A DNA stretch of 64,000 nucleotides from Nitrospirota bacterium. Its GTDB lineage: Bacteria > Nitrospirota > Nitrospiria > JACQBZ01. This document shows positions 24,223-50,630 of this stretch, one piece after another (the first letter of the stretch is position 1; each line of letters starts with the position of its first letter). The position numbers and the translations under genes were made by a program. The DNA lies in assembly GCA_016200255.1 (NCBI GenBank), contig JACQFA010000039.1, forward strand, positions 13,678-77,677, read 5' to 3'. The notes under the pieces are model-generated. The model saw only the letters and a program-made list of their open reading frames with translations, was not told the origin of the DNA and did no database searches.

Positions 24223-24620
24223 GATCCCCGATTTAGAAGCGGTCAAGTTCGTATTGTAAAACCGCATCGACCCTTGACCGTTCTTACGATCTCTAATTTA
24301 TCTTGACATAGCAGGTACAGGGGACTACCCTAACTTTAGTATCATTTAGAAGGCAACGACACCTCCCTCGATTAAAGAACCATCCGAAGTTAACTGACCC
24401 GGTGCCGTTCCTGCGGTCGTAATTTTCCATCCGGGCCTGACAATCAGGCCGTGATTTAAATCCCAGAGCCCAACAAAGGAGGCTCTGATGGAAAGAAACC
24501 TCTCTTCTCTTTTTTCCTCCCCGCTCACCGGAGACCCTTATACCTCTCGTGCTCCTCCCATGCTGCCTCGCCAACGTCGCCGTATAGAGAGAGGTACTCT
24601 TGAAGTAAAGGAGGTCTGCG

Positions 24621-25571
24621 ATGAAGCTGACCCAGATAAAATCGATCAAGACCAATTCAGAAGATCTAAACACGGGAGGTTTCTTCCTTCTCCTGTCAGT
24701 GGTCGTGATTCTTTCATTCACTGTTTTCTTGTGGCGCGCCGATCACTTCTCCCAAAAACGGATCGATAACGGCAAGGTACAGGAAACCGTCGGAGATCGG
24801 ATCCAGGCCCTGGGACGTTTCGATCAGGAGCGGCAGACCCGACTCCAACAACAATGGGACAACACGGTTCGGCAGTTCACCGTATTTACAAACAGCCGAG
24901 AAGGAAGATTGCAGGAGATTCTCGGACAGTCCATTGTAGGAATGACCCAAACGATTCTCATGGAGCAAAATCGGCTCAGAGGCGCCGTGGTCCGGGCGCA
25001 GAAAGACCTCCGGCTGTTCAACGAGGGAAGGGACGCCCGCTGGCAGGAAAAACTGTGCGGGGCCGTGATGAAGGCATATCGGCGCGCCCCTGAAGGAGGC
25101 GTCGCATTTCAGTTGACCTTCGAACGAGAAACGATCCGACTTGGTAAACTCGAGGCGCGAACCACCCGCAATCTGCAGTCCACCCTGGGCGCCCTGATGG
25201 CTCAAGAGGCCCGGTTCCATATGGCCATCCCCGGAATGTATCGGGATGCGATCGAATCCGCCCAACGATCCGCCCAGCTACTCGAGGCCTCTTACATGGC
25301 CTCGACCGGTCGAATCCTCGATGGACTCAAAACCGATTTATCCTGGCAGAGGCGACCTGAAGATTACACGCGGCTCATTGGAGTCGTTCAGGAAGTGCTC
25401 AGAAATCATCGGGGCGCAGGCGGATTTGTGGAGTACGGCTGGCCGGCGCTTACCGGATTACTGGTGGCCATGGTTTGGATGGGTTTGACCATCCCAAAGG
25501 GTCCTTCGGCGGATGTGGATGCAGCCAAGGAGGAGATGGCCATCGATTTAAGTATGCCCAAGGCGGCCTAA
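24621..25571 (+). CDS. Hypothetical membrane protein (N- and C-terminal TM segments)
   Basis: AAGGAGG RBS; TM segments FFLLLSVVVILSFTVFLW and WPALTGLLVAMVWMGL; no identified domain. Confidence 0.5.
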   Translation: MKLTQIKSIKTNSEDLNTGGFFLLLSVVVILSFTVFLWRADHFSQKRIDNGKVQETVGDRIQALGRFDQERQTRLQQQWDNTVRQFTVFTNSREGRLQEILGQSIVGMTQTILMEQNRLRGAVVRAQKDLRLFNEGRDARWQEKLCGAVMKAYRRAPEGGVAFQLTFERETIRLGKLEARTTRNLQSTLGALMAQEARFHMAIPGMYRDAIESAQRSAQLLEASYMASTGRILDGLKTDLSWQRRPEDYTRLIGVVQEVLRNHRGAGGFVEYGWPALTGLLVAMVWMGLTIPKGPSADVDAAKEEMAIDLSMPKAA

Positions 25572-39746: not shown

Positions 39747-40226
39747 TTATGACGCCTGATCAATCTTTCGGGTCGGAGCATCTCTCCGCCGGACCTTCCG
39801 ATGCTTTTTAAGCTCCTCGACTCGCTTCTGCCATTTGTCGACGGACTGCCGAACCTCGGCCACTTCAACAATCCATTCCTGGCCGGAGATCGCTTCAAAA
39901 ACGGTTCCTTCATAAAAAACCAGGACCATATCGCCCGTTGCAACCAGCGTCAACTCGGCCAGCGGCCGCTTAATGGTGGGAAGGAGTCTTTGCAGGTGGG
40001 CGATGCTTTGGCGTATGCGTTGAACCGAGACGCCCGCATCCAATAATTTCTTCGCCGTCTTGAACGAAACGAGGTCCTGAAAGGTGTAGCGCGAATGCCC
40101 TCCGGGTGTTCGAAGACCCGGCTTGATCAGATCGGTCCGATCCCAGTGCTGCACCTGCCTCCGACTCAGACCAATGATCTCGCCGACCTCATGGGAGGTA
40201 AAAAAACCTTTTTCATGATTGCTCAT
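39747..40226 (-). CDS. MerR-family HTH transcriptional regulator with an uncharacterised C-terminal domain
   Basis: FFTSHEVGEIIGLSRRQVQHWDRTDLIKPGLRTPGGHSRYTFQDLVSFKTAKKLLDAGVSVQRI matches the MerR HTH. It is the first gene of the operon. Confidence 0.75.
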   Translation of the reverse strand: MSNHEKGFFTSHEVGEIIGLSRRQVQHWDRTDLIKPGLRTPGGHSRYTFQDLVSFKTAKKLLDAGVSVQRIRQSIAHLQRLLPTIKRPLAELTLVATGDMVLVFYEGTVFEAISGQEWIVEVAEVRQSVDKWQKRVEELKKHRKVRRRDAPTRKIDQAS

Positions 40227-40254
40227 TGATCGCCCATAAACCCGTCTTTTTGGT

Positions 40255-40290
40255 TAGGTATAATACGTCACAATTTAAATGTCAAGAAAA
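40255..40290 (-). promoter_or_regulatory. Putative promoter and operator in an AT-rich region upstream of the MerR-like gene
   Basis: Minus-strand cTTGACAtttaaattgtgacgtatTATACc has a consensus -35 and a palindromic ATTTAAAT core in the spacer. The region 40227-40412 is strongly AT-rich compared with the flanks. Confidence 0.4.
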
Positions 40291-40412
40291 AAGCACATTT
40301 TGTTGAAAAGATGTGTAAATTATAATCAGGCATTATATAACCAACTGTTTTATAACAAATAAAAACACTTAAAGATATGCACAGATTATTGTGGATATGA
40401 TTATGGCAACCG

Positions 40413-41132
40413 CTATAGAAAATGGACCAAAGAGAGTATCTCGATCAGATTACTGATTGAGACCACCCCCTCGGGTTTGTTCGGACCCCGAGATCGATCA
40501 AGATAAATCGGGGTGAGTCCGGCCCCGCCTGCGCCCCGGACATCGTCCTCGACACTATCGCCGACATGAACCGCTTCACGGGGCAGAAGACCATTTTGCT
40601 GAAGCGCCTTCCGAAAGATGACTGGATCCGGTTTTGCGGCGCCTTCCCGACTGGAGATTTGAATGGAGTCAAGATACTCAAAAATCTCGAGATCCGTGCA
40701 GACCGTCAGAAGTCGGGAATCGAAATTTGAGATGATTCCCAGGATAAAACCCGCCTTCCTGAGACTCTGCAGCGCCTCGCGTGTTTCGGGATAAAGCTCC
40801 CATCCCCGAATGCCGGCAAACGCCCGGAAAACCCCTTCAAAGTAGTCGTCAAATTTTCGGATCATCCCGACCCGCTGGAAAACCTCCCGGACAACCCCGT
40901 GCCACCATTCTTTTTCAGAATGCCTGAGAAGACCGGACTGGAGTCGTGAAAACGCCAGCGGCGGCGCTTTGGGAAAGATATCGCGAAAGGCCGCTTCAAT
41001 GGCCTCCGGGGAGGCCTTCACCCCGTAGGGTTTTGCAAGCTCCCAGTAAATCTGTCCGACGCCGCCCCGCACACGGAACAGCGTTCCCACCGCATCGAAA
41101 AAAATGGCCTTGGCATAAATCGGGCTGGACAT
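40413..41132 (-). CDS. HAD-superfamily hydrolase
   Basis: AIFFDAVGTLF motif I and ...HVGDSVEDDVRGAGGAG motif IV. The start was chosen at MSSPIY. Confidence 0.75.
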   Translation of the reverse strand: MSSPIYAKAIFFDAVGTLFRVRGGVGQIYWELAKPYGVKASPEAIEAAFRDIFPKAPPLAFSRLQSGLLRHSEKEWWHGVVREVFQRVGMIRKFDDYFEGVFRAFAGIRGWELYPETREALQSLRKAGFILGIISNFDSRLLTVCTDLEIFEYLDSIQISSREGAAKPDPVIFRKALQQNGLLPREAVHVGDSVEDDVRGAGGAGLTPIYLDRSRGPNKPEGVVSISNLIEILSLVHFL

Positions 41133-42658: not shown

Positions 42659-42889
42659 AATCCACCTCCTATGGTTGTTGGATCTTGTTGTTCATCCATC
42701 CCGTGCAGCAAGTCCATAGTGCAGAGTCCGTGCCAATGCATATTGAAGGGATAGAAGGGTGTCCACTTCATGAATTGTGCGATATATTCGAGGAGAAAAC
42801 AGGAAAGCAGAGACGGCAAGCGGAACGGATATGTCTCGTGATTCAGGTCGGCAGTCGGAATCATGCGTCAGCGTTCATAAGAAAATCCC

Positions 42890-42918
42890 TTGACACCATC
42901 CGACCCGTTTGGTAGCAT
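42890..42918 (+). promoter_or_regulatory. Sigma70-like promoter P1 (TTGACA-17-TAGCAT) upstream of the FecR-domain gene; duplicated at 44779-44807
   Basis: TTGACAccatccgacccgtttggTAGCAT. The same ~45-nt sequence occurs at 44770-44815 with 3 substitutions. Confidence 0.55.
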
Positions 42919-43031
42919 CGCGCGGACCGTCCGCACCTGTCGGTGACCGCCGACACCCGGCTGCGCAGATGCATACTTGATTCTTCCTCCCCATCGGGAT
43001 CATAATCTCCTTGGGTAAGGAGAACCTGACC

Positions 43032-44771
43032 GTGTCTGTGATCATCCGGGTGCTGGCCGTGCTGTTGTTGTTGAACCTGGCGAGCGTGTTTCCGCCACTG
43101 GCCTACGCAGAAGAAGAAACGTCCGACCCCTACGGAACGGTGCGGCTTTCCCGCATCAGCCTCATCGAGGGGGAGGTACTCCTTCAGCGGGGCGATGATG
43201 AAGAGTGGGTGGCGGCCTCCGTCAACATGCCGCTTCGCCCTCACGATAAACTCTGGGCGACCGACGACGCTCGTGCCGAAATCCAGTTTGACGACGGGAC
43301 CGCGGTTCGCCTTGCCGAAAATTCCAATCTGGACCTCGTAAGCCTGGAGCCGGACTGGATCCATCTCCAGCTCACATTGGGCGTGGCCAGTTTCGCGGCC
43401 CGGGCCTCTTTCCGCGCGGGCGCGCGCCAGCCCTTTCTCGAGATCGACACCCCGCAGGCCACGGCCCAGGTCACTCGTTCGACGGCGTTTCGGGTGGATG
43501 TGGCGGAGGACGGTTCAACCGTCATCACGGTCCGTGACGGTGAGGTGGAACTGAGCCGCGATGAGGAGCCGATCATGATCGCCGCCGATCAACGCGTCGC
43601 GATCGAGGGAGGCGACTCCCCGGACTATCTATTGGAAGCGGCCGAGCCGCCGGATGACTGGGACCGATGGAATAAAGATCGCGATACCCAACGGGCCCGG
43701 GCCGCGGACCATGAGCATCTCCCCTCCGGTACCGAGATGGGGGTGACGGAGTTGAATACCTACGGCAACTGGAATCAGGTCCAGACCTACGGCTGGGTTT
43801 GGATCCCCCAAGTGACCGCGGGTTGGACTCCCTATCATATCGGCCGATGGGTCTGGATGGAGCCGTGGGGCTGGACCTGGGTCTCCTACGAACCATGGGG
43901 TTGGCTCCCCTATCACTATGGCCGGTGGGTCATGGTCGGAGGCAGGGGATGGGTCTGGGTGCCGGGTCCGACTCTTGGAATTTGGACGCCAGGCTGTGTT
44001 CGATTTTTTTATGGGCCGAACTGGGTGGGCTGGGTGCCGCTCGGACCGGGCGAGGTCTACTATTACTATCCCGGCGCTTCCGTGAATATCGATATCAACC
44101 TCGTCAACTATCCTGTCCCGGGGGCGGCGATCGTGATGTCCCGGCGTCGCTTCGTCACGGGCCTGCCGGAGGAAGAAAGGTTTATTCCGCCCAAAGATCC
44201 GATTCGGGCCGGGCGGGTGGCGGTCGGTCCGCCGCCGGTCGTGCCGACACGCGCCAGCCTGCATCCCGCGCCCGAGACAGCGGTCCCGGCGGATCGGCTT
44301 CCGCCCCAAACGATCCATCGCCCGGTGGTCTATACCCGCACCCCGCCGGCTCCGCCGCCCCTCTTCGAGAACCGGGTAAAGGAAATTCAGGGCGTCGTCA
44401 CGCAAGGCCGTCCCCCCGCCGCGCCCTCGCTTCCGGAGAAAGGTGTACCGGGTGCCGAAGAGCGTCGCGCCGCAAGCGGGAAAATCCGCAAAGACATCAC
44501 GGTCAGGAAAATGATCGCACCCTCTACGCTCTCGACCTTTCCAAACCGGACGCCGCGCCCGCCGGAGGAGCGCGCCGCGCCGAGTCATGAAGCCAAGAAA
44601 AGGCAACCCTCTCCTCCCAAGAACGTTAAGTTGGCGAGGACACCTTCGGAACCCTCCGCTCCGCAAACATTGGAGGGACGAACACAACAAGGCCGGCCCC
44701 TCTATCGGAAGCCGCCATCCAACCCCGCCCCCGCGGTTGTTCCTCCCCCCCAAGGCGACGGATCGCACTAA
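43032..44771 (+). CDS. FecR-domain secreted protein with a Trp-rich repeat region and a Pro-rich C-terminal tail
   Basis: An N-terminal signal peptide, then FecR-like VRLSRISLIEGEVLLQRGDDEEW...AEIQFDDGTAVRLAENS. The middle reads WVWIPQVTAGWTPYHIGRWVWMEPWGWTWVSYEPWGWLPYHYGRWV and the C-terminal 200 aa are Pro/Ala-rich. The start was chosen at the GTG after an AAGGAG RBS; the track ORF begins at a TTG at 43011. Confidence 0.65.
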   Translation: MSVIIRVLAVLLLLNLASVFPPLAYAEEETSDPYGTVRLSRISLIEGEVLLQRGDDEEWVAASVNMPLRPHDKLWATDDARAEIQFDDGTAVRLAENSNLDLVSLEPDWIHLQLTLGVASFAARASFRAGARQPFLEIDTPQATAQVTRSTAFRVDVAEDGSTVITVRDGEVELSRDEEPIMIAADQRVAIEGGDSPDYLLEAAEPPDDWDRWNKDRDTQRARAADHEHLPSGTEMGVTELNTYGNWNQVQTYGWVWIPQVTAGWTPYHIGRWVWMEPWGWTWVSYEPWGWLPYHYGRWVMVGGRGWVWVPGPTLGIWTPGCVRFFYGPNWVGWVPLGPGEVYYYYPGASVNIDINLVNYPVPGAAIVMSRRRFVTGLPEEERFIPPKDPIRAGRVAVGPPPVVPTRASLHPAPETAVPADRLPPQTIHRPVVYTRTPPAPPPLFENRVKEIQGVVTQGRPPAAPSLPEKGVPGAEERRAASGKIRKDITVRKMIAPSTLSTFPNRTPRPPEERAAPSHEAKKRQPSPPKNVKLARTPSEPSAPQTLEGRTQQGRPLYRKPPSNPAPAVVPPPQGDGSH

Positions 44772-44778
44772 AAATTTC

Positions 44779-44807
44779 TTGACACCTTCCGACCCGTTTG
44801 ATAGCAT
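44779..44807 (+). promoter_or_regulatory. Promoter P2, a duplicate of P1 (TTGACA-17-TAGCAT), at the left edge of a lower-GC island
   Basis: TTGACAccttccgacccgtttgaTAGCAT, followed by about 300 nt with no convincing ORF before the gene at 45125. Confidence 0.5.
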
Positions 44808-45124
44808 CGCGCCGTCTGAAGCATCCAGTCCGTTTTTTATAGTTTAACGTTGCTGCGCACCACATCGGCCGAGACGGGCATGCCACTGCCCGATCCGAGC
44901 GGTCGAGGGAGATTACGTCCCCCGGCTTCAAAACCGATCACGCTTTTTCGCACCTTGCCCCCAATTGAATTCTATCCGGACATGGGCCTCAAGTTCACCT
45001 CAATCGTCTTTGGGCTTGTTTTAAATTTTTCGAAGGTCAAAAACCCTTTTCCAATTCCAAGATCTGTAGTTTGATTTTCTGAAGGAATTGGCTTATCCTT
45101 TTATGGGTTCAAAAACAAATCATT

Positions 45125-46141
45125 TTGGACAACGTAACAAGACCTGCCTTGCTAACGATAGAACATAAAAAAATGACACCTGTCCGCCTTCGCCCAAATG
45201 TGCCAATAAAATTAGCCCAGGTCGCTGCGGATCTTGAACCGTACACGGGTCGATGGCATGTGTTCCTCTTAAGGCCCCCACGTTTTCATGGATGCCTTAC
45301 TGACTTCTTGCAAGGGCATCCCGATTTTCAGAAGCGCTTTCTGCCGAGATCTCAAAGAGCCGTTACGCTCCTAAATCGGCTTCTTGGCGATAGAGGCAAG
45401 TTTATTCCTCCAAGCACGACGACAAGATCTAAACGGATATATGGTTCCGTTGGGCTCGTCGTCGATCGTGCGGCGATCCATTTGATCGGCGAGGACGTCA
45501 TGGTTAGGCCTAGGAGTTATCTGCAACAAGGAAAAACAAAGAAAAGGATTCTCAAGGCTCTTGAATACCAATCCCGGCGAGAGTCACCTGGATGTCTCAG
45601 CCCAGAGCGTCCAGAGACTCTGGGTTGGTTATGGGTTCTCGGCAATCTTGAGCCCGTATTTCGCGGCTTTCGCCCGCTCTCAGACATTGACGGCGCCGCG
45701 CTGGGGTCGGCACCCGTCACCCCACGAAGCGCCATGCGTTGGCTGGCCAATCTGGTGACCGAGGACCTCGCCAGCGAACTGACCGCACTCATTCGTTCCC
45801 TCGCTTGCATTATTCCGAAGGGCCCCTATCGCTCGAATCCGATCTTTGGCGGCTATGGTTTTGTCATCGGCTCCGATGGGGATTTCATGGCCGGTCACAC
45901 GCTCGTCGAGATCAAGTGCTCTGTCTCGGGTGTCAGGAGAAATTCCGTGTCACAGATGCTATCGTATTTCGCAATCGATCGACTCAACCATGGGACCCAT
46001 GGCTATGGAGTACGTCAACTGGCACTCTGTCTACCGAGGCAGCAAGCGACTATCATCGGAACGGTCGATGAATGGTTGAGCTTCTTCGGCGGCCCATCTC
46101 CAAAACGCTTTATAGCCATGTTCGCAGAATATGTGAAATAA
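45125..46141 (+). CDS. Hypothetical protein with a possible C-terminal PD-(D/E)xK nuclease-like motif
   Basis: GC (~50%) and codon usage are lower than in the surrounding genes. The C-terminal GYGFVIGSDGDFMAGHTLVEIKCS fits a D...E-x-K motif. The start is ambiguous (45125, or the internal ATG at about 45173). Confidence 0.4.
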   Translation: MDNVTRPALLTIEHKKMTPVRLRPNVPIKLAQVAADLEPYTGRWHVFLLRPPRFHGCLTDFLQGHPDFQKRFLPRSQRAVTLLNRLLGDRGKFIPPSTTTRSKRIYGSVGLVVDRAAIHLIGEDVMVRPRSYLQQGKTKKRILKALEYQSRRESPGCLSPERPETLGWLWVLGNLEPVFRGFRPLSDIDGAALGSAPVTPRSAMRWLANLVTEDLASELTALIRSLACIIPKGPYRSNPIFGGYGFVIGSDGDFMAGHTLVEIKCSVSGVRRNSVSQMLSYFAIDRLNHGTHGYGVRQLALCLPRQQATIIGTVDEWLSFFGGPSPKRFIAMFAEYVK

Positions 46142-46268
46142 TCTCATGACACAAATTTCTTGGTCAGATTTCTATAGAGGTTCTAAAACAGTTCATTTTG
46201 AACCATGTGCTGGATTGTAAAGATGGCTAATGTTCTCGCCACAATTTGAATCTGAAATCAAAAAGGTT

Positions 46269-46287
46269 TTTGACACAGCTGTGTCAA
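46269..46287. promoter_or_regulatory. Perfect 18-bp palindrome TTGACACAG|CTGTGTCAA upstream of the NHL-repeat gene
   Basis: Exact inverted repeat centred on CAGCTG in an AT-rich intergenic region, about 80 nt upstream of the ATG at 46366. Confidence 0.5.
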
Positions 46288-46365
46288 AGAGTCAAAAATG
46301 AACCGTATCGGGTTTAAGTAGAGAAATAGCTAACAGGGTTTCCGATGTACACGGGAGGCCTTTGC

Positions 46366-47340
46366 ATGAACTACAAAGCTAAATTGACTAAAGGACTTCG
46401 TAGTGCAGGGTTGCTGGGCTGGTTGCTTGCCTTGGGATTATTGTATGGCTCTGGTGGGGAAAGTGCTGGTGGTAGTAGCGGTGCCACACCGCAGATCTAC
46501 GTGGCAGACGTTTTCAACCACCGGATCGTGCGGATCAATGACATGACCGGTGCGGGCTGGACCACTCTCGGCACCGAAGGCAACGGGGCCAACCAGTTTC
46601 GCAATCCTGACGGCATTTTTGTAGATGCGGCCGGGAAGATCTACGTGGCAGACTCTTTTAACAACCGGATCGTGCGGGTCGATGACATGACCGGTGCGGG
46701 CTGGACTACATTCGGCACCGTTGGCGCTGGGACCAATCAGTTTTCCAAGCCAACTGGCATCTTTGTCGACACAGCCGGGAAGATCTATGTGACAGACTTT
46801 GTCAGAATCGTGCGGGTCGATGACATGACCGGCACGGGCTGGACTACATTCGGCACCGTTGGCGCTGGGACCAACCAGTTTCATAATCCTGGCGGCATTT
46901 TTGTAGATGCGGCCGGGAAGATCTACGTGGCAGACTCTTTTAACAACCGGATCGTGCGGGTCGATGACATGACCGGCGCGGGTTGGACTACATTTGGTGC
47001 CTCCGGCAATAGGTCCAACCAGCTTAGCGGTCCGGAGGGCATCTTTGTGGATGCAGCCGGGAAGATCTACGTGGCAGACCCCGACAACCACCGCATTGTA
47101 CGGATGAATGACATGACCGGCGCGGGTTGGACCACTCTCGGCACCCCTGGCAGCGGGACAAACCAATTTAGATACCCGTTTGGCATTTCTATAGACACGG
47201 CCGGGAAGATCTACGTGGCAGATGAAAGCAACCGTATTGTGCGGATGAATGACATGACCGGTGCGGGTTGGATCACACTCGGCACCCCTGGCAGCGTGAC
47301 AAATCAATTTCACGTTGCAAGGAACATCTTTATCCGATAG
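46366..47340 (+). CDS. NHL-repeat (six-bladed beta-propeller) protein with signal peptide
   Basis: Repeats of ...GKIYVADSFNNRIVRVDDMTGAGWTTFGT.G.G.NQF..P.GIFVD.A...; N-terminal hydrophobic segment LLGWLLALGLL. One repeat is shortened (KIYVTDFVRIVRVDD). Confidence 0.75.
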   Translation: MNYKAKLTKGLRSAGLLGWLLALGLLYGSGGESAGGSSGATPQIYVADVFNHRIVRINDMTGAGWTTLGTEGNGANQFRNPDGIFVDAAGKIYVADSFNNRIVRVDDMTGAGWTTFGTVGAGTNQFSKPTGIFVDTAGKIYVTDFVRIVRVDDMTGTGWTTFGTVGAGTNQFHNPGGIFVDAAGKIYVADSFNNRIVRVDDMTGAGWTTFGASGNRSNQLSGPEGIFVDAAGKIYVADPDNHRIVRMNDMTGAGWTTLGTPGSGTNQFRYPFGISIDTAGKIYVADESNRIVRMNDMTGAGWITLGTPGSVTNQFHVARNIFIR

Positions 47341-47522
47341 CTTCAGGATTGAAGAAATTCTTTGTGCTCATTTTGTGCTCAAGCCCGCCACTCTCAGGCC
47401 TATTCCAGCCCACTCCAGCCAATTTAGTCTTCCAGTATAATTCTTTGACAGAGTTGGTTTTAGTTGGATAGAATGGGCCAGAGTAGGCAACACTGTGCTA
47501 AAATTGCGATTAAATTATTCGA

Positions 47523-47804
47523 GTGGATTCGAAAATGATGCACAAACCAATCCGAATTCTCTCAGTCACTTTCTTCGTGCTCCTGATTTTGACGTATAGC
47601 CAGGGAGCCGGAGCCGAGCAACAACCTAAATTTACAATCGAGACTCTTCCGGGCGATAAGGGGCCCATCGTTTCTAAAGGCCGAGGGTCAGGTCTTGCAA
47701 TCACGCATCGAGAAACCAACCGATTGCTGAATTCAGAACTTGCCTCGCATGCGCGCGCGGGTAAAAGGAACACTATATTCGATCCTGCATCATTATATAT
47801 ATAG
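47523..47804 (+). CDS. Small secreted protein (93 aa, signal peptide)
   Basis: MDSKMMHKPIRILSVTFFVLLILTYSQGAGA. It is preceded by TTGACA-17-ATAGAAT at about 47447-47480. Confidence 0.4.
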   Translation: MDSKMMHKPIRILSVTFFVLLILTYSQGAGAEQQPKFTIETLPGDKGPIVSKGRGSGLAITHRETNRLLNSELASHARAGKRNTIFDPASLYI

Positions 47805-47935
47805 GCCGCAGAGTGGTCTTGCCACTGTGCTATCGGTCGAGTCCTCAGGCGTCAAAGACCCGGCCCAGAACGAAATAATTAAGTATGGTGTCCCCGGAAT
47901 TTAAGACGGTTCCACGGGAGATAGGCCAATCTTTG

Positions 47936-48364
47936 TCAAGGCGTCCCTTCCGAGCCATTTTGAGAAGGTTGTTGAACCTCTGCACATTCTAGTGAGGCGT
48001 AAACTGGATCGGGATCTAAGTAGTAAGCCCCACCACTCACCAAATCAATAACCGTTCCAACAAAAAACCCCACAAAAAGGAATGGGATGAGATTGGCGAA
48101 CACGATAGGTGAATTATAGCTAAATACCAATACCTGCTTTCGTTCACATCCTGTTTTGTTAAATTCAACTAATGCGCTTTTTCCCCGAGGCAGATCCCTT
48201 TTAACAGGCGTTTTTCCAATCGCTGCGCCATCAACGCTTACTTCTGCTCCTTCGGGATGGGAATTAAAAAGGACTTCTTGTTTGCTGCCATGGATAAGCG
48301 TTCCGTAAGCACATCCATTTAAAATCATTGCCACAAGTACTATATAGGCAATTAATCTTTTCAT
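47936..48364 (-). CDS. PEGA-domain lipoprotein
   Basis: Lipobox MKRLIAYIVLVAMILNGC, and a PEGA-like VSVDGAAIGKTPVKRDLPRGKSALVEFNKTGCERKQVLVF. The locus is lower in GC (~45%). Confidence 0.55.
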   Translation of the reverse strand: MKRLIAYIVLVAMILNGCAYGTLIHGSKQEVLFNSHPEGAEVSVDGAAIGKTPVKRDLPRGKSALVEFNKTGCERKQVLVFSYNSPIVFANLIPFLFVGFFVGTVIDLVSGGAYYLDPDPVYASLECAEVQQPSQNGSEGTP

Positions 48365-48407
48365 GTCTTCACCCACTAAATGCAAATACTTGCTCGCTGA
48401 ACGTAAC

Positions 48408-50630
48408 CTAAAGAAGAAGTAGTCCGGCCTCACGGACGGCCTTCCACTCCCTGCTTTTTAAAAATGTTCCAAACGATTTTTTCGACTTGGCAGGGCAGCG
48501 CCGGGCCGCCTCCGCGAGTTTCAAGTAAGCGGCGCCTTTTCGGCCGCGCGGCTGAGACTCTTTTAAGATCGACTGAAGCCACTCGGCGATTAACGGCTCG
48601 ACTCGGATTTTGCGATCCTCTCCCCGGCCGGGGAGGAATAGAGAGGACCCCTTTGAAATCGACGGAACGCCGCCGAGCCAGACCAGCCTCCGTTCCAGAT
48701 CGTCTCGATAAGAAGGCGCGGCCGCCAGCGCGGTCGTGATGAGGTTCCGCGAGACCTTCGGTTTGGAAAGGGGGGAATCAAAAAAAGTCCGGACGTCGAC
48801 GTCTAATTTGACCCCGTGCATGTAGTTGTAGATCGCCTTGGCGAGTCCTGGCCCGAATCGTTCCGGATCGCTTCCGGTTGGATCGACATGGGTCAGATCG
48901 TTGTTCGCGAAGCGGCCGGGGGCGGGGCCGGTGATCTCGATTCCGTACGCGCCGGGGTTGAGACCGACGGGGCTGTGCCGTGTGGCCGTGAACCGATGCC
49001 AGAAGGCGGAATGGAGTATCCCGGCTTCAAAGAGTTGCCGCACCCGCTCCAGACTTGCTATCGTCTCCACGGCCGTCTCGGTCGGAAATCCGTACATCAG
49101 GTAGGCATGGACCATGATCCCGGCTTCGGTAAAAGCATGCGCGACGCGTGCAACCTGCGCGACGGTGATCCCTTTTTCCATCAGGGCGAGAAGACGGTCG
49201 GAGGCGACCTCCATCCCGCCGGTGACGGCGATGCAGCCGGAGGCGGCCAGCAGACGGCAGAGGTCGGGCGTGAAGGCCTCTTCGAACCGGATATTCCCCC
49301 ACCAGGAAATCGCGCGGCCCCGGTCCAGCAGCTCCAGCGCCAGATCGGCCAGGCGCGATGGCGGCGCGGCCTCGTCCACAAAATGAAACCCCGTCTCTCC
49401 GGTCTCTTCGATCAGGATGTCGATCCGGTCGGCCAATAGCGTCGCCGGCGTCGGCTCGTAGCGCTGGATATAATCGAGCCCGATGTCGCAGAAGGCGCAT
49501 TTTTTCCAGTAACAGCCGTGCGCCACGGTCAGCTTGTTCCAGCGGCCATCCGACCAGAGCCGATGCATCGGGTTGAGCATCTCGACCAGCGACAGGTACG
49601 ATCGAAGCGGAAGGCCGCGATAGGTGGGCGTCCCGGTCTCGGCAAAGGGAACTTCCTGCTCCGGCGCGGTATTGATGTACTGAACCTTGCCATCGCGTCG
49701 CAGGAAGGTCCGGCACAGCCGCCCCATCTCCGGTTCATCGAAGGATTCCAAGAGGGCGAGGAGGGGCCGCTCTCCGGCGTCGAGTGTGACATAGTCCACA
49801 TAATCGAAGAGACGCGGCTCGGCGAGTTCACGCAGCTCGGTATTGACGTAGCCTCCTCCGAGCGCGATTTTGACGCCGGGATACCGCCGGCGGATGAAAG
49901 CGGCCGAGCGGAGCGCACCGTAAAGATTTCCGGGGAAGGGAATCGTGATCCCGACGAGATGAGGCTTGACCGTTTTCATCTGTCGATCCAGGACTTCTTC
50001 CAACATCCGGTCGATCAGGCCGGGCGGATCTTTAAGCGCCTGGTCGAGCGGATCGAAGGAGGTCGCGGAGGCCGCAAGACGCTCGGCATAACGGCTGAGC
50101 CCGAAGCGGGGATCGACCGTCGCCTGGATGAGGTCGGCCAGATCGTCCAGATATAGGGAGGCGAGATGTTTGGCCCGGTCGGTCAGGCCGAGGCTTCCGA
50201 AGGCCCAAAGATCGTCGTCCAGTTTTGAAAAACGGGGCCCTTCCGGCAAAAACCGGCGACGGCTTATCTGGGTCGCCCAGGAAGGATCATTTCCCTGGAG
50301 AAACCGGATCACCGGATCGATCGTGTCGAGGTAACGATCCCTCAATGAGACGGCCCGCTCAATCACCGGGTCGGACGTCCGAGTCCGCGCCCGGCTCGAA
50401 TCAATCGCCTCAAAAAGGCGGGCCAGCCCCGGACCGGAAAAAAGCGCCAGAAACGTTTCGATTCCCAGATCGGCCTGGAAGACTGTCTCGGTTTTGGATT
50501 GAAGATAACCGGTCAGATAGGCCGTCGCGGGATACGGGGTGTTCAACTGGGTGAAGGGAGGGGTCAGGAGAAGGAGGCGCGGCATGACGGAACGCGACGG
50601 AAAAGCGTCAGTAACCGCCGGGGCTGCCAT
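48408..50630 (-). CDS. B12-binding-domain radical SAM protein (740 aa)
   Basis: N-terminal B12-binding-like (...VKIALGGGYVNTELREL...) and the radical SAM CxxxCxxC motif VAHGCYWKKCAFC; large C-terminal region of unknown function. Confidence 0.7.
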   Translation of the reverse strand: MAAPAVTDAFPSRSVMPRLLLLTPPFTQLNTPYPATAYLTGYLQSKTETVFQADLGIETFLALFSGPGLARLFEAIDSSRARTRTSDPVIERAVSLRDRYLDTIDPVIRFLQGNDPSWATQISRRRFLPEGPRFSKLDDDLWAFGSLGLTDRAKHLASLYLDDLADLIQATVDPRFGLSRYAERLAASATSFDPLDQALKDPPGLIDRMLEEVLDRQMKTVKPHLVGITIPFPGNLYGALRSAAFIRRRYPGVKIALGGGYVNTELRELAEPRLFDYVDYVTLDAGERPLLALLESFDEPEMGRLCRTFLRRDGKVQYINTAPEQEVPFAETGTPTYRGLPLRSYLSLVEMLNPMHRLWSDGRWNKLTVAHGCYWKKCAFCDIGLDYIQRYEPTPATLLADRIDILIEETGETGFHFVDEAAPPSRLADLALELLDRGRAISWWGNIRFEEAFTPDLCRLLAASGCIAVTGGMEVASDRLLALMEKGITVAQVARVAHAFTEAGIMVHAYLMYGFPTETAVETIASLERVRQLFEAGILHSAFWHRFTATRHSPVGLNPGAYGIEITGPAPGRFANNDLTHVDPTGSDPERFGPGLAKAIYNYMHGVKLDVDVRTFFDSPLSKPKVSRNLITTALAAAPSYRDDLERRLVWLGGVPSISKGSSLFLPGRGEDRKIRVEPLIAEWLQSILKESQPRGRKGAAYLKLAEAARRCPAKSKKSFGTFLKSREWKAVREAGLLLL

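Follow-up and report, generated by a model that had tools for sequence, protein, structure and literature searches.

A low-GC, probably acquired patch of four genes in a Nitrospirota genome and its solo PD-(D/E)xK-type nuclease

Between positions 44780 and 48407 of a 64-kilobase (kb) window from a metagenome-assembled Nitrospirota genome (the window being the whole stretch of DNA that was analysed, 64,000 nucleotides of contig JACQFA010000039.1), four genes share a region of low GC content. On the forward strand lie a gene for a stand-alone Cas4/RecB-like PD-(D/E)xK nuclease of 322 amino acids (aa) at 45173-46141, assigned from motif, hidden Markov model (HMM) and fold; a gene for a secreted six-bladed NHL-repeat beta-propeller of 324 aa at 46366-47340; and a small open reading frame (ORF) of 89 aa at 47535-47804. 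The fourth, at 47936-48364 on the reverse strand, encodes a PEGA-domain lipoprotein of 142 aa. A FecR/DUF6600 gene adjoins the region on the left and a radical SAM gene on the right. An earlier reading of the letters without database searches (hereafter the sequence-only reading) had taken the region for a horizontally acquired cassette. The account favoured here, to which we assign a probability of roughly 0.6, is of a small accessory patch without the means to mobilise itself, whose four genes, each transcribed on its own, form a mosaic and not a functional cassette; horizontal transfer and recombination most likely brought them in or rearranged them, on more than one occasion.

Composition of the region and comparison with relatives

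The GC content of 44780-48407 is 0.499, compared with a mean of 0.569 (standard deviation (sd) 0.023) for all windows of 3628 nucleotides (nt) within the 64 kb and with 0.570 for the 64 kb overall. The global minimum among these sliding windows (GC 0.498, starts 44767-44903) falls on the region itself, and the windows that are equally low make up 0.4% of the total, every one of them overlapping it. The Karlin dinucleotide-signature distance to the rest of the window, which is normalised for GC, reaches 112.6 against a mean of 44.8 (sd 16.6), the maximum of the window at about 4 sd. On a codon-typicality index derived from the other 54 ORFs of the window, the four genes rank first (PEGA), second (small ORF), third (nuclease) and fifth (NHL) of 58 in atypicality. 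The low-GC island described from the sequence alone is therefore real on quantitative grounds, as is its unusual codon usage, with one amendment to the codons that had been named as frequent: AAA shows no enrichment (22.7 per 1000 codons in the region, 25.1 in the rest), and ATA is enriched some 2-2.5-fold, together with AGA, AGG and TTA, on counts of merely 7-10 codons.

The drop in GC is not uniform. Its troughs are the four spacers (0.37-0.46, as AT-rich as had been claimed), the small ORF (0.479) and the PEGA gene (0.434), and about 27% of the region is non-coding. In 400-nt windows the bodies of the other two genes are near normal (0.555-0.585), at 0.56-0.585 over 45400-45999 for the nuclease and 0.555-0.57 for the NHL gene; the nuclease gene has a GC content of 0.537 against 0.571. 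GC at third codon positions (GC3) spreads widely, at 0.37, 0.48, 0.54 and 0.64, with the NHL gene at 0.64 and the PEGA gene at 0.37, the lowest value in the window and far under all other genes. On either side the DNA is GC-rich: the FecR/DUF6600 gene (43011-44771) has the highest GC in the window, 0.637, and the radical SAM gene, which does abut the right edge as the sequence-only reading had it, stands at 0.615. Since both exceed the window mean of 0.57, the contrast with the region is exaggerated. Non-overlapping troughs of 3.6 kb also occur at 16.7-20.4, 32.9-36.6 and 39.3-42.9 kb, with GC of 0.527-0.532. A separate, sharp trough at 40000-40600 (0.415-0.43 in 400-nt windows) corresponds to the spacer that separates a MerR-family gene from one for a HAD hydrolase.

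For comparison with relatives, the radical SAM protein served as the anchor in scans of genome and metagenome collections. Its best matches, L005 and L006 among genomes (73%) and L085 (86%), L086 and L087 (74%) among metagenomes, have no other gene of the window on either side of it. The closest relative available is L167, a 23-kb Logan contig found via the 90% cluster of the radical SAM protein, which is 89.5% identical in nucleotides over 48405-50592 (6141-8322 of L167), that is, over the radical SAM gene only. Homology stops on the island side at the stop codon of that gene, which sets the right boundary of the region at 48405-48410 (reverse strand), and on the other side near the start codon. 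L167 contains none of the island genes. Its upstream neighbour of radical SAM is a homolog of the window gene at 24621-25571 (24298-25496 against 4668-5870 of L167; 78.7% nucleotide identity), which in the window lies 23 kb from the radical SAM gene. Such an isolated block is a sign that the lineage has been extensively rearranged, or else that the radical SAM gene is itself mobile. Because L167 is rearranged on both sides of the anchor, it provides no empty site, and the presence/absence comparison is confounded: the island genes are indeed absent from the nearest relative, but both flanks of the anchor differ there, and the more distant relatives have no synteny to offer. For FecR/DUF6600, LPP20 and the remaining proteins of the flanks, long contigs yielded no close relatives, and most of the window proteins looked up had no exact counterpart on record.

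The most durable alternative to acquisition, in our view possible but doubtful, is that the region is native and that, in a genome of uneven composition, its low GC follows from an unusually large share of AT-rich promoter spacers and from envelope genes with weak expression. The large non-coding share, the AT-richness of the spacers, the closeness of the nuclease and NHL gene bodies to the window mean and the existence of further troughs of the same length all fit a native origin, as do a neighbourhood rich in lipoproteins and secreted proteins (FecR/DUF6600, LPP20, LpoB) and a lack of mobility signatures. It fits less well with a region that is the extreme of the window for GC, codon use and a GC-normalised dinucleotide signature at once, or with a GC3 for the PEGA gene so far under that of every other gene; moreover, the genes are absent from L167, and the nuclease family described below is too rare and too patchy for vertical inheritance.

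Four genes, their promoter-like sites and their boundaries

The NHL protein starts at ATG 46366 after a GGGAGG ribosome-binding site and has a signal-peptide-like N-terminus. It matches Pfam NHL (PF01436) with an expectation value (E) of 1.1e-27 (95.1 bits, cut-off 20), and its repeat array consists of 5.6 copies of a 144-nt unit at 78% DNA identity, encoding six blades of the IYVAD/IYVTD type, so that the propeller named in the sequence-only reading is confirmed. Within the array (46493-47292), identical 27-mers occur at 46637-46663 and 46919-46945, and two of the blades fall short of the 144-nt period, by 6 nt and by 3 nt. The likeness of the blades suggests recent intragenic duplication or gene conversion. 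Homologs number more than 1289 at E<1e-10; the best are 49-64% identical and mostly metagenomic, with one named Armatimonadota. The protein also matches the PADLOC model PD-T4-6 (E 5e-14), though only over profile positions 355-431 of 452, which the NHL repeats match repeatedly; an assignment as a PD-T4-6 defence protein was rejected, the partial profile match being a similarity at the level of the repeat.

The 89-aa ORF (GC 0.479) begins with a signal-peptide-like stretch, MMHKPIRILSVTFFVLLILTYSQGAGA, in keeping with the small secreted protein that had been proposed. It has no family match in Pfam, NCBIfam, PADLOC or PHROGs, no homolog search having been made, and the reading frame, signal peptide and promoter-like site make it a candidate gene. 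The PEGA protein ends in a hydrophobic helix and carries an LNGC lipobox, read directly as MKRLIAYIVLVAMILNGC; its gene follows the radical SAM gene on the same strand after a gap of 43 nt. Pfam PEGA (PF08308) matches with E 2.1e-06 (28 bits, cut-off 20.8), the NCBI name is PEGA domain-containing protein, and together with the lipobox this bears out the earlier description as a PEGA lipoprotein. A word search returned two relatives other than itself, on contigs of 887 and 1036 bp. The protein matches the phage family phrog_6823, of unknown function, over its full length (E 4.5e-09), and tblastn against deposited phages gave no match.

To the right of the radical SAM gene, between 50608 and 55538, lie a 64-aa ORF with a lipoprotein-type signal, an LPP20 gene, a 452-aa ORF with a lipoprotein-type signal, an LpoB-like gene, a trypsin-like peptidase gene and a second LPP20 gene. 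This run of lipoproteins, taken with FecR/DUF6600 and PEGA, marks an envelope-protein neighbourhood.

A consensus scan scored out of 12 places promoter-like sites of 10-11 upstream of each forward-strand gene of the region: TTGACA-17-TAGCAT with a TG on the nuclease side (44779-44807, forward), TTGACA-18-AAAAAT upstream of the NHL gene (46270-46299, forward) and TTGACA-18-TAGAAT upstream of the small ORF (47445-47474, forward), the last being the best of the region at 11. The near-consensus promoters reported for the spacers can accordingly be located, and the best of them are sensibly placed; the total of 7 sites is not striking beside the 3.6 +/- 2.1 found in shuffles. Overlapping the -35 hexamer of the NHL site is a perfect palindrome of 20 base pairs, TTTGACACAGCTGTGTCAAA (46269-46288, within an element at 46269-46299, forward strand), which occurs once in the window with 0.01 expected and which looks like an operator.

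The left edge had been said to coincide with a duplicated promoter, and the duplication is genuine. Two copies of a 42-nt promoter-like direct repeat, 90% identical, occur at 42882-42923 and 44771-44812 on the forward strand, the only two in the window where none is expected by chance, and no further copies were found among 171 other loci compared. The first, TTGACA-17-TAGCAT with a TG, lies upstream of FecR/DUF6600 and outside the island; the second, at the left edge, overlaps the final base of the FecR/DUF6600 stop codon. What the copies bracket is thus the FecR/DUF6600 gene and not the island. Their likeness is limited to the promoter core, beginning a little upstream of the -35 hexamer and ending a little beyond the -10, about as far as the predicted transcription start, and could be due to promoter capture, duplication or a common regulator site. 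Between the second copy and the nuclease start runs a non-coding stretch of 360 nt (44813-45172, forward), with a GC content of 0.574 as far as about 44960 and 0.371 thereafter. Its predicted fold is not significant (z -0.42) and gives no sign of an RNA element; Rfam has no match in the window, and the leader and spacers remain without one even at E<=1.

As the sequence-only reading had noted, the usual marks of mobility are missing. The 64-kb window contains no transfer RNA (tRNA) or transfer-messenger RNA gene; no direct repeats bracket the island, the sole long one being the 42-nt repeat that flanks FecR/DUF6600; and when most of the ORFs in the stretch from 35.8 to 56.3 kb were run against Pfam and NCBIfam, and two further genes judged by NCBI name, no integrase or transposase appeared, two short ORFs being outside this coverage.

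It might be supposed that the four genes work together as a single system, such as a defence module whose effector is the nuclease and whose sensor or anchor is the NHL or PEGA protein. The genes do adjoin and have an atypical composition in common, and both the PD-T4-6 match of the NHL protein and the phrog_6823 match of the PEGA protein could be read in this way. Such a system is nonetheless very improbable. Each forward-strand gene has a promoter-like site of its own, the PEGA gene lies on the opposite strand, and the GC3 of the four genes runs from 0.37 to 0.64, all of which points to independence; the NHL, PEGA and small proteins carry export or lipoprotein signals and the nuclease does not; the PD-T4-6 match stays at repeat level; and in seven other loci with homologs of the nuclease, no NHL, PEGA or small-protein gene accompanies it. 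The promoter-like sites, the strand of the PEGA gene, the spread of GC3 and the other homolog loci likewise lend no support to the single four-gene cassette of the sequence-only reading.

A sparsely distributed nuclease family

The nuclease ORF opens at TTG 45125, and homologs, which are 310-325 aa long, favour a start at ATG 45173. From there the protein begins MTPVRLRP, compared with MTPIQLQP in the homolog of locus L001, a conserved MTP(V/I)xLxP. Given this N-terminus and the lengths of the homologs, the 219-aa model of the source record (HY283_05110) is too short and 322 aa is supported, which corrects one gene model. When five members, whose identity to the window protein is 40-58%, are aligned, the catalytic residues D235/D237 and E246-x-K248 are invariant, as is Q261xxxY265, in a stretch (residues 256-276) predicted to be helical. 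This core is C-terminal; the preceding 200 or so residues form a helical region without a recognised counterpart, in which the motif RGFRPLSD is invariant, along with D171 of the RGFRPLSDxD stretch. The only invariant cysteines are C249 and C286, and with just these two a Cas4-type iron-sulfur cluster is unlikely. The nuclease is the cytoplasmic member of the four, and no export or lipoprotein signal can be read in its sequence.

Only two PADLOC models match, RTasPDDEXK and PDC-S61. The former, whose description field reads 'DRT', is the best (E 6e-15 with the window protein, 2e-9 to 1e-12 with four homologs); its match spans residues 212-337 and positions 103-219 of the 226 in the profile, that is, the C-terminal core. 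An AlphaFold model (pLDDT 79.7, pTM 0.83) has the alpha/beta core of restriction-endonuclease-like proteins. Motif, HMM and fold therefore agree on the PD-(D/E)xK-like protein that had been proposed. Elsewhere the family finds little company: Pfam and NCBIfam yield 0 families at E<=0.01, PHROGs no match, and a search of Protein Data Bank (PDB) sequences with the family profile a single match, by chance. Foldseek against the PDB is not significant (best Dna2, E 0.24), and against viral models (BFVD) it is marginal, with helicase-nuclease and Cas4-like proteins on top; tblastn against plasmids gives weak matches of 23-32% identity to the nuclease ends of UvrD-like helicases and to a "3'-5' exonuclease", in Streptomyces, and tblastn against phages gives none. 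We conclude with high confidence that the protein has a RecB/Cas4-type PD-(D/E)xK domain and belongs to a new sequence family. By analogy with the superfamily, it would cleave DNA in a metal-dependent manner through D235/D237, E246 and K248, with Q261 and Y265 positioning the substrate.

The family is scarce. Among 5.8 billion clusters, a word-indexed search turned up 5 members; among 1.84 billion representatives, an exhaustive HMMER profile search turned up 21 at E<1e-30 and, at the looser E<1e-3, 483. The weaker matches have the core alone in common, and some are fused to LRV or HEAT repeats (P0086, P0116, P0124, P0128). Distribution is very patchy, over hosts with GC of 0.31-0.65, and the GC of the nuclease gene (0.32 to 0.64) tracks that of the host.

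Seven other homolog loci were compared, and no partner gene is common to them. In L004, BilC and BilD lie directly upstream (E 1e-65 and 5e-164) and MukF/MukE-like genes downstream; in L001/L002, there are a 272-aa gene and, two genes upstream, a type II methyltransferase (E 9e-65), with a faint match to an IS1-type transposase some 4.5 kb off; in L171, UzuA (E 2e-51) adjoins; and in L003, MazE/PIN genes lie downstream, with a HEAT-ARM_XIII-like protein two genes further. The rest are in more varied company: HEAT and HD-domain genes in L168, respiratory genes and a ribbon-helix-helix gene in L169/L170, unknowns in L165/L166. Four of the seven loci therefore have defence genes recognised by PADLOC, or toxin-antitoxin genes, adjoining or near (Bil, type II methyltransferase, Uzume, MazE/PIN). 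HEAT-repeat proteins matching PADLOC HEAT-ARM_XIII occur near two family members (L003 12154-13254; L168 4055-5764), and a recurrent association of the nuclease with HEAT proteins is possible.

By analogy with this company, and on a weaker footing than its chemistry, the nuclease might serve in defence against, or conflict with, mobile DNA, and could be a gene of the defence-island type that here stands alone. The lack of any Pfam or NCBIfam model, the rarity of the family and its Bil, restriction-modification, Uzume and toxin-antitoxin neighbours make it a reasonable candidate for a stand-alone defence gene. We put forward only tentatively, and consider somewhat unlikely, the fuller proposal that the 322-aa protein represents an undescribed family of single-gene defence nucleases, with a Cas4/RecB-like core and a novel helical N-terminus, which would need no partner in attacking the DNA of phages or plasmids and would pass between very different bacteria as solitary defence-island cargo.

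The solitary, scattered occurrence of the gene would also be explained if it were itself a small and selfish cassette, with imperfect inverted repeats on either side. Upstream of the nuclease lies an imperfect palindrome (45106-45130, forward) that contains the 15-mer GGTTCAAAAACAAAT, and the same 15-mer occurs unchanged upstream of the 57%-identical homolog in L001 (2718-2732); among eight loci it is the only conserved flanking non-coding sequence. In imperfect inverted form it recurs immediately beyond the 3' end of the window gene (46179-46204, a palindromic element with GGTTC...GAACC half-sites, 38 nt past the stop codon and in mirror position to 45106-45130) and, with 11 of 12 positions matching, within the 3' end of the L001 gene (3713-3724). 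Two pairs of inverted repeats share an identical axis, 45036-45050 with 46260-46274 (14/15) and 45106-45130 with 46180-46204 (18/25), and a post hoc test over a 95-nt span counts 45 matching positions out of 95, compared with 26 +/- 4 for shuffles. The flanks are however AT-rich and of low complexity, and their local alignment is no better than that of shuffles (25 against 17.4 +/- 2.2, maximum 28), for which reason a long terminal inverted repeat around the gene was rejected; L003, L004, L165, L168, L169 and L171 show no comparable repeats or flank sequence, and the motifs could equally be operator sites. The copies of GGTTCAAAAACAAAT could thus be an operator or vestigial terminal repeats, with weak statistical support, and the chance of a selfish cassette appears slim.

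Reverse transcriptases of the UG7 group have been described as associated with a cluster of PD-(D/E)XK nucleases (PMC9226505), to which the PADLOC model RTasPDDEXK presumably corresponds. That the window nuclease is an accessory of such a UG7/DRT8-type defence system, or a remnant of one, as its best model might suggest, is scarcely credible: no reverse transcriptase occurs among the searched ORFs of 35.8-56.3 kb or in the seven homolog loci, so that the defining component of the system is missing everywhere, the N-terminal two thirds of the protein are unrelated to the profile, and no conserved non-coding RNA candidate accompanies the gene.

Origin of the patch and known systems

Taken together, the evidence favours the accessory patch proposed at the outset, a mosaic which would be at least partly foreign, set in a recombination-prone stretch and possessing neither mobility machinery of its own nor functional unity. 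The three genes beside the nuclease probably supply envelope and secreted proteins that fit the lipoprotein-rich neighbourhood, and no link between them and the nuclease has been demonstrated. Of the horizontally acquired cassette in the sequence-only reading, the acquisition survives as plausible though unproven, on three measures of composition, the patchiness of the nuclease family and the absence of the genes from L167, whereas the notion of one cassette does not. Neither a phage nor a plasmid source is indicated: the nuclease and PEGA proteins have no phage match by tblastn, and the plasmid matches are weak and confined to helicase-nuclease genes.

Several observations weigh on the other side. 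AT-rich spacers take up about one quarter of the region, and the nuclease (in GC) and the NHL gene (in GC3, 0.64) deviate only mildly, so that gene density, as opposed to foreign origin, accounts for part of the signal. Rearrangement alone could account for the absence of the island from L167, given that this contig differs on both sides of radical SAM. Integrase, transposase, tRNA and bracketing direct repeats were all sought and not found. With regard to defence, the immediate neighbours of the nuclease in the window are envelope and metabolic genes, and the association seen elsewhere is based on merely seven independent loci.

The region is thus best regarded as a piece of variable DNA, probably acquired, in a Nitrospirota lineage that has been poorly sampled: an ordinary patch of the variable genome and not a new kind of system, in which the sole element of wider interest is an unclassified family of solo nucleases. 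Many solo PD-(D/E)xK nucleases have already been proposed as defence candidates, so what this family would add is incremental.

Set beside known systems, the nuclease shares with the Cas4/RecB family (Cas4, ACE1, MGME1, the nuclease domains of AdnAB, AddAB and RecB, Dna2, RecE) the D...E-x-K and QxxxY signature, and differs from it in having no sequence match in Pfam, NCBIfam or the PDB, no fusion to a helicase and no CRISPR or Argonaute genes next to it. From Cas4 proper it is further set apart by the four-cysteine iron-sulfur pattern, which is not seen in the family, and by its genomic setting, as no cas genes appear in any of the nuclease loci. To the nucleases associated with UG7/DRT8 reverse transcriptases it is alike in its core, for which RTasPDDEXK is the best profile in all five members (E 6e-15 to 2e-9), and unlike in being some 100 residues longer than that profile and without a reverse transcriptase nearby. 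Among the other genes, the NHL protein resembles, through its Pfam match and its homologs, the secreted NHL propellers that sources name YncE-like, streptogramin-lyase-like or ScyF-like, although it falls short of the cut-off for the ScyF equivalog (152 against 350 bits). As to the region as a whole, integrative genomic islands differ from it in their integrase, tRNA target and att repeats, and defence islands in their neighbours, which here are envelope and metabolic genes. A likeness does exist to genomic islets and defence-island cargo that lack mobility genes, with which the region has in common its low GC, deviant codons and dinucleotides and patchy cargo, and with which the homologs of its nuclease have in common the company of Bil, type II methyltransferase, Uzume and toxin-antitoxin genes.

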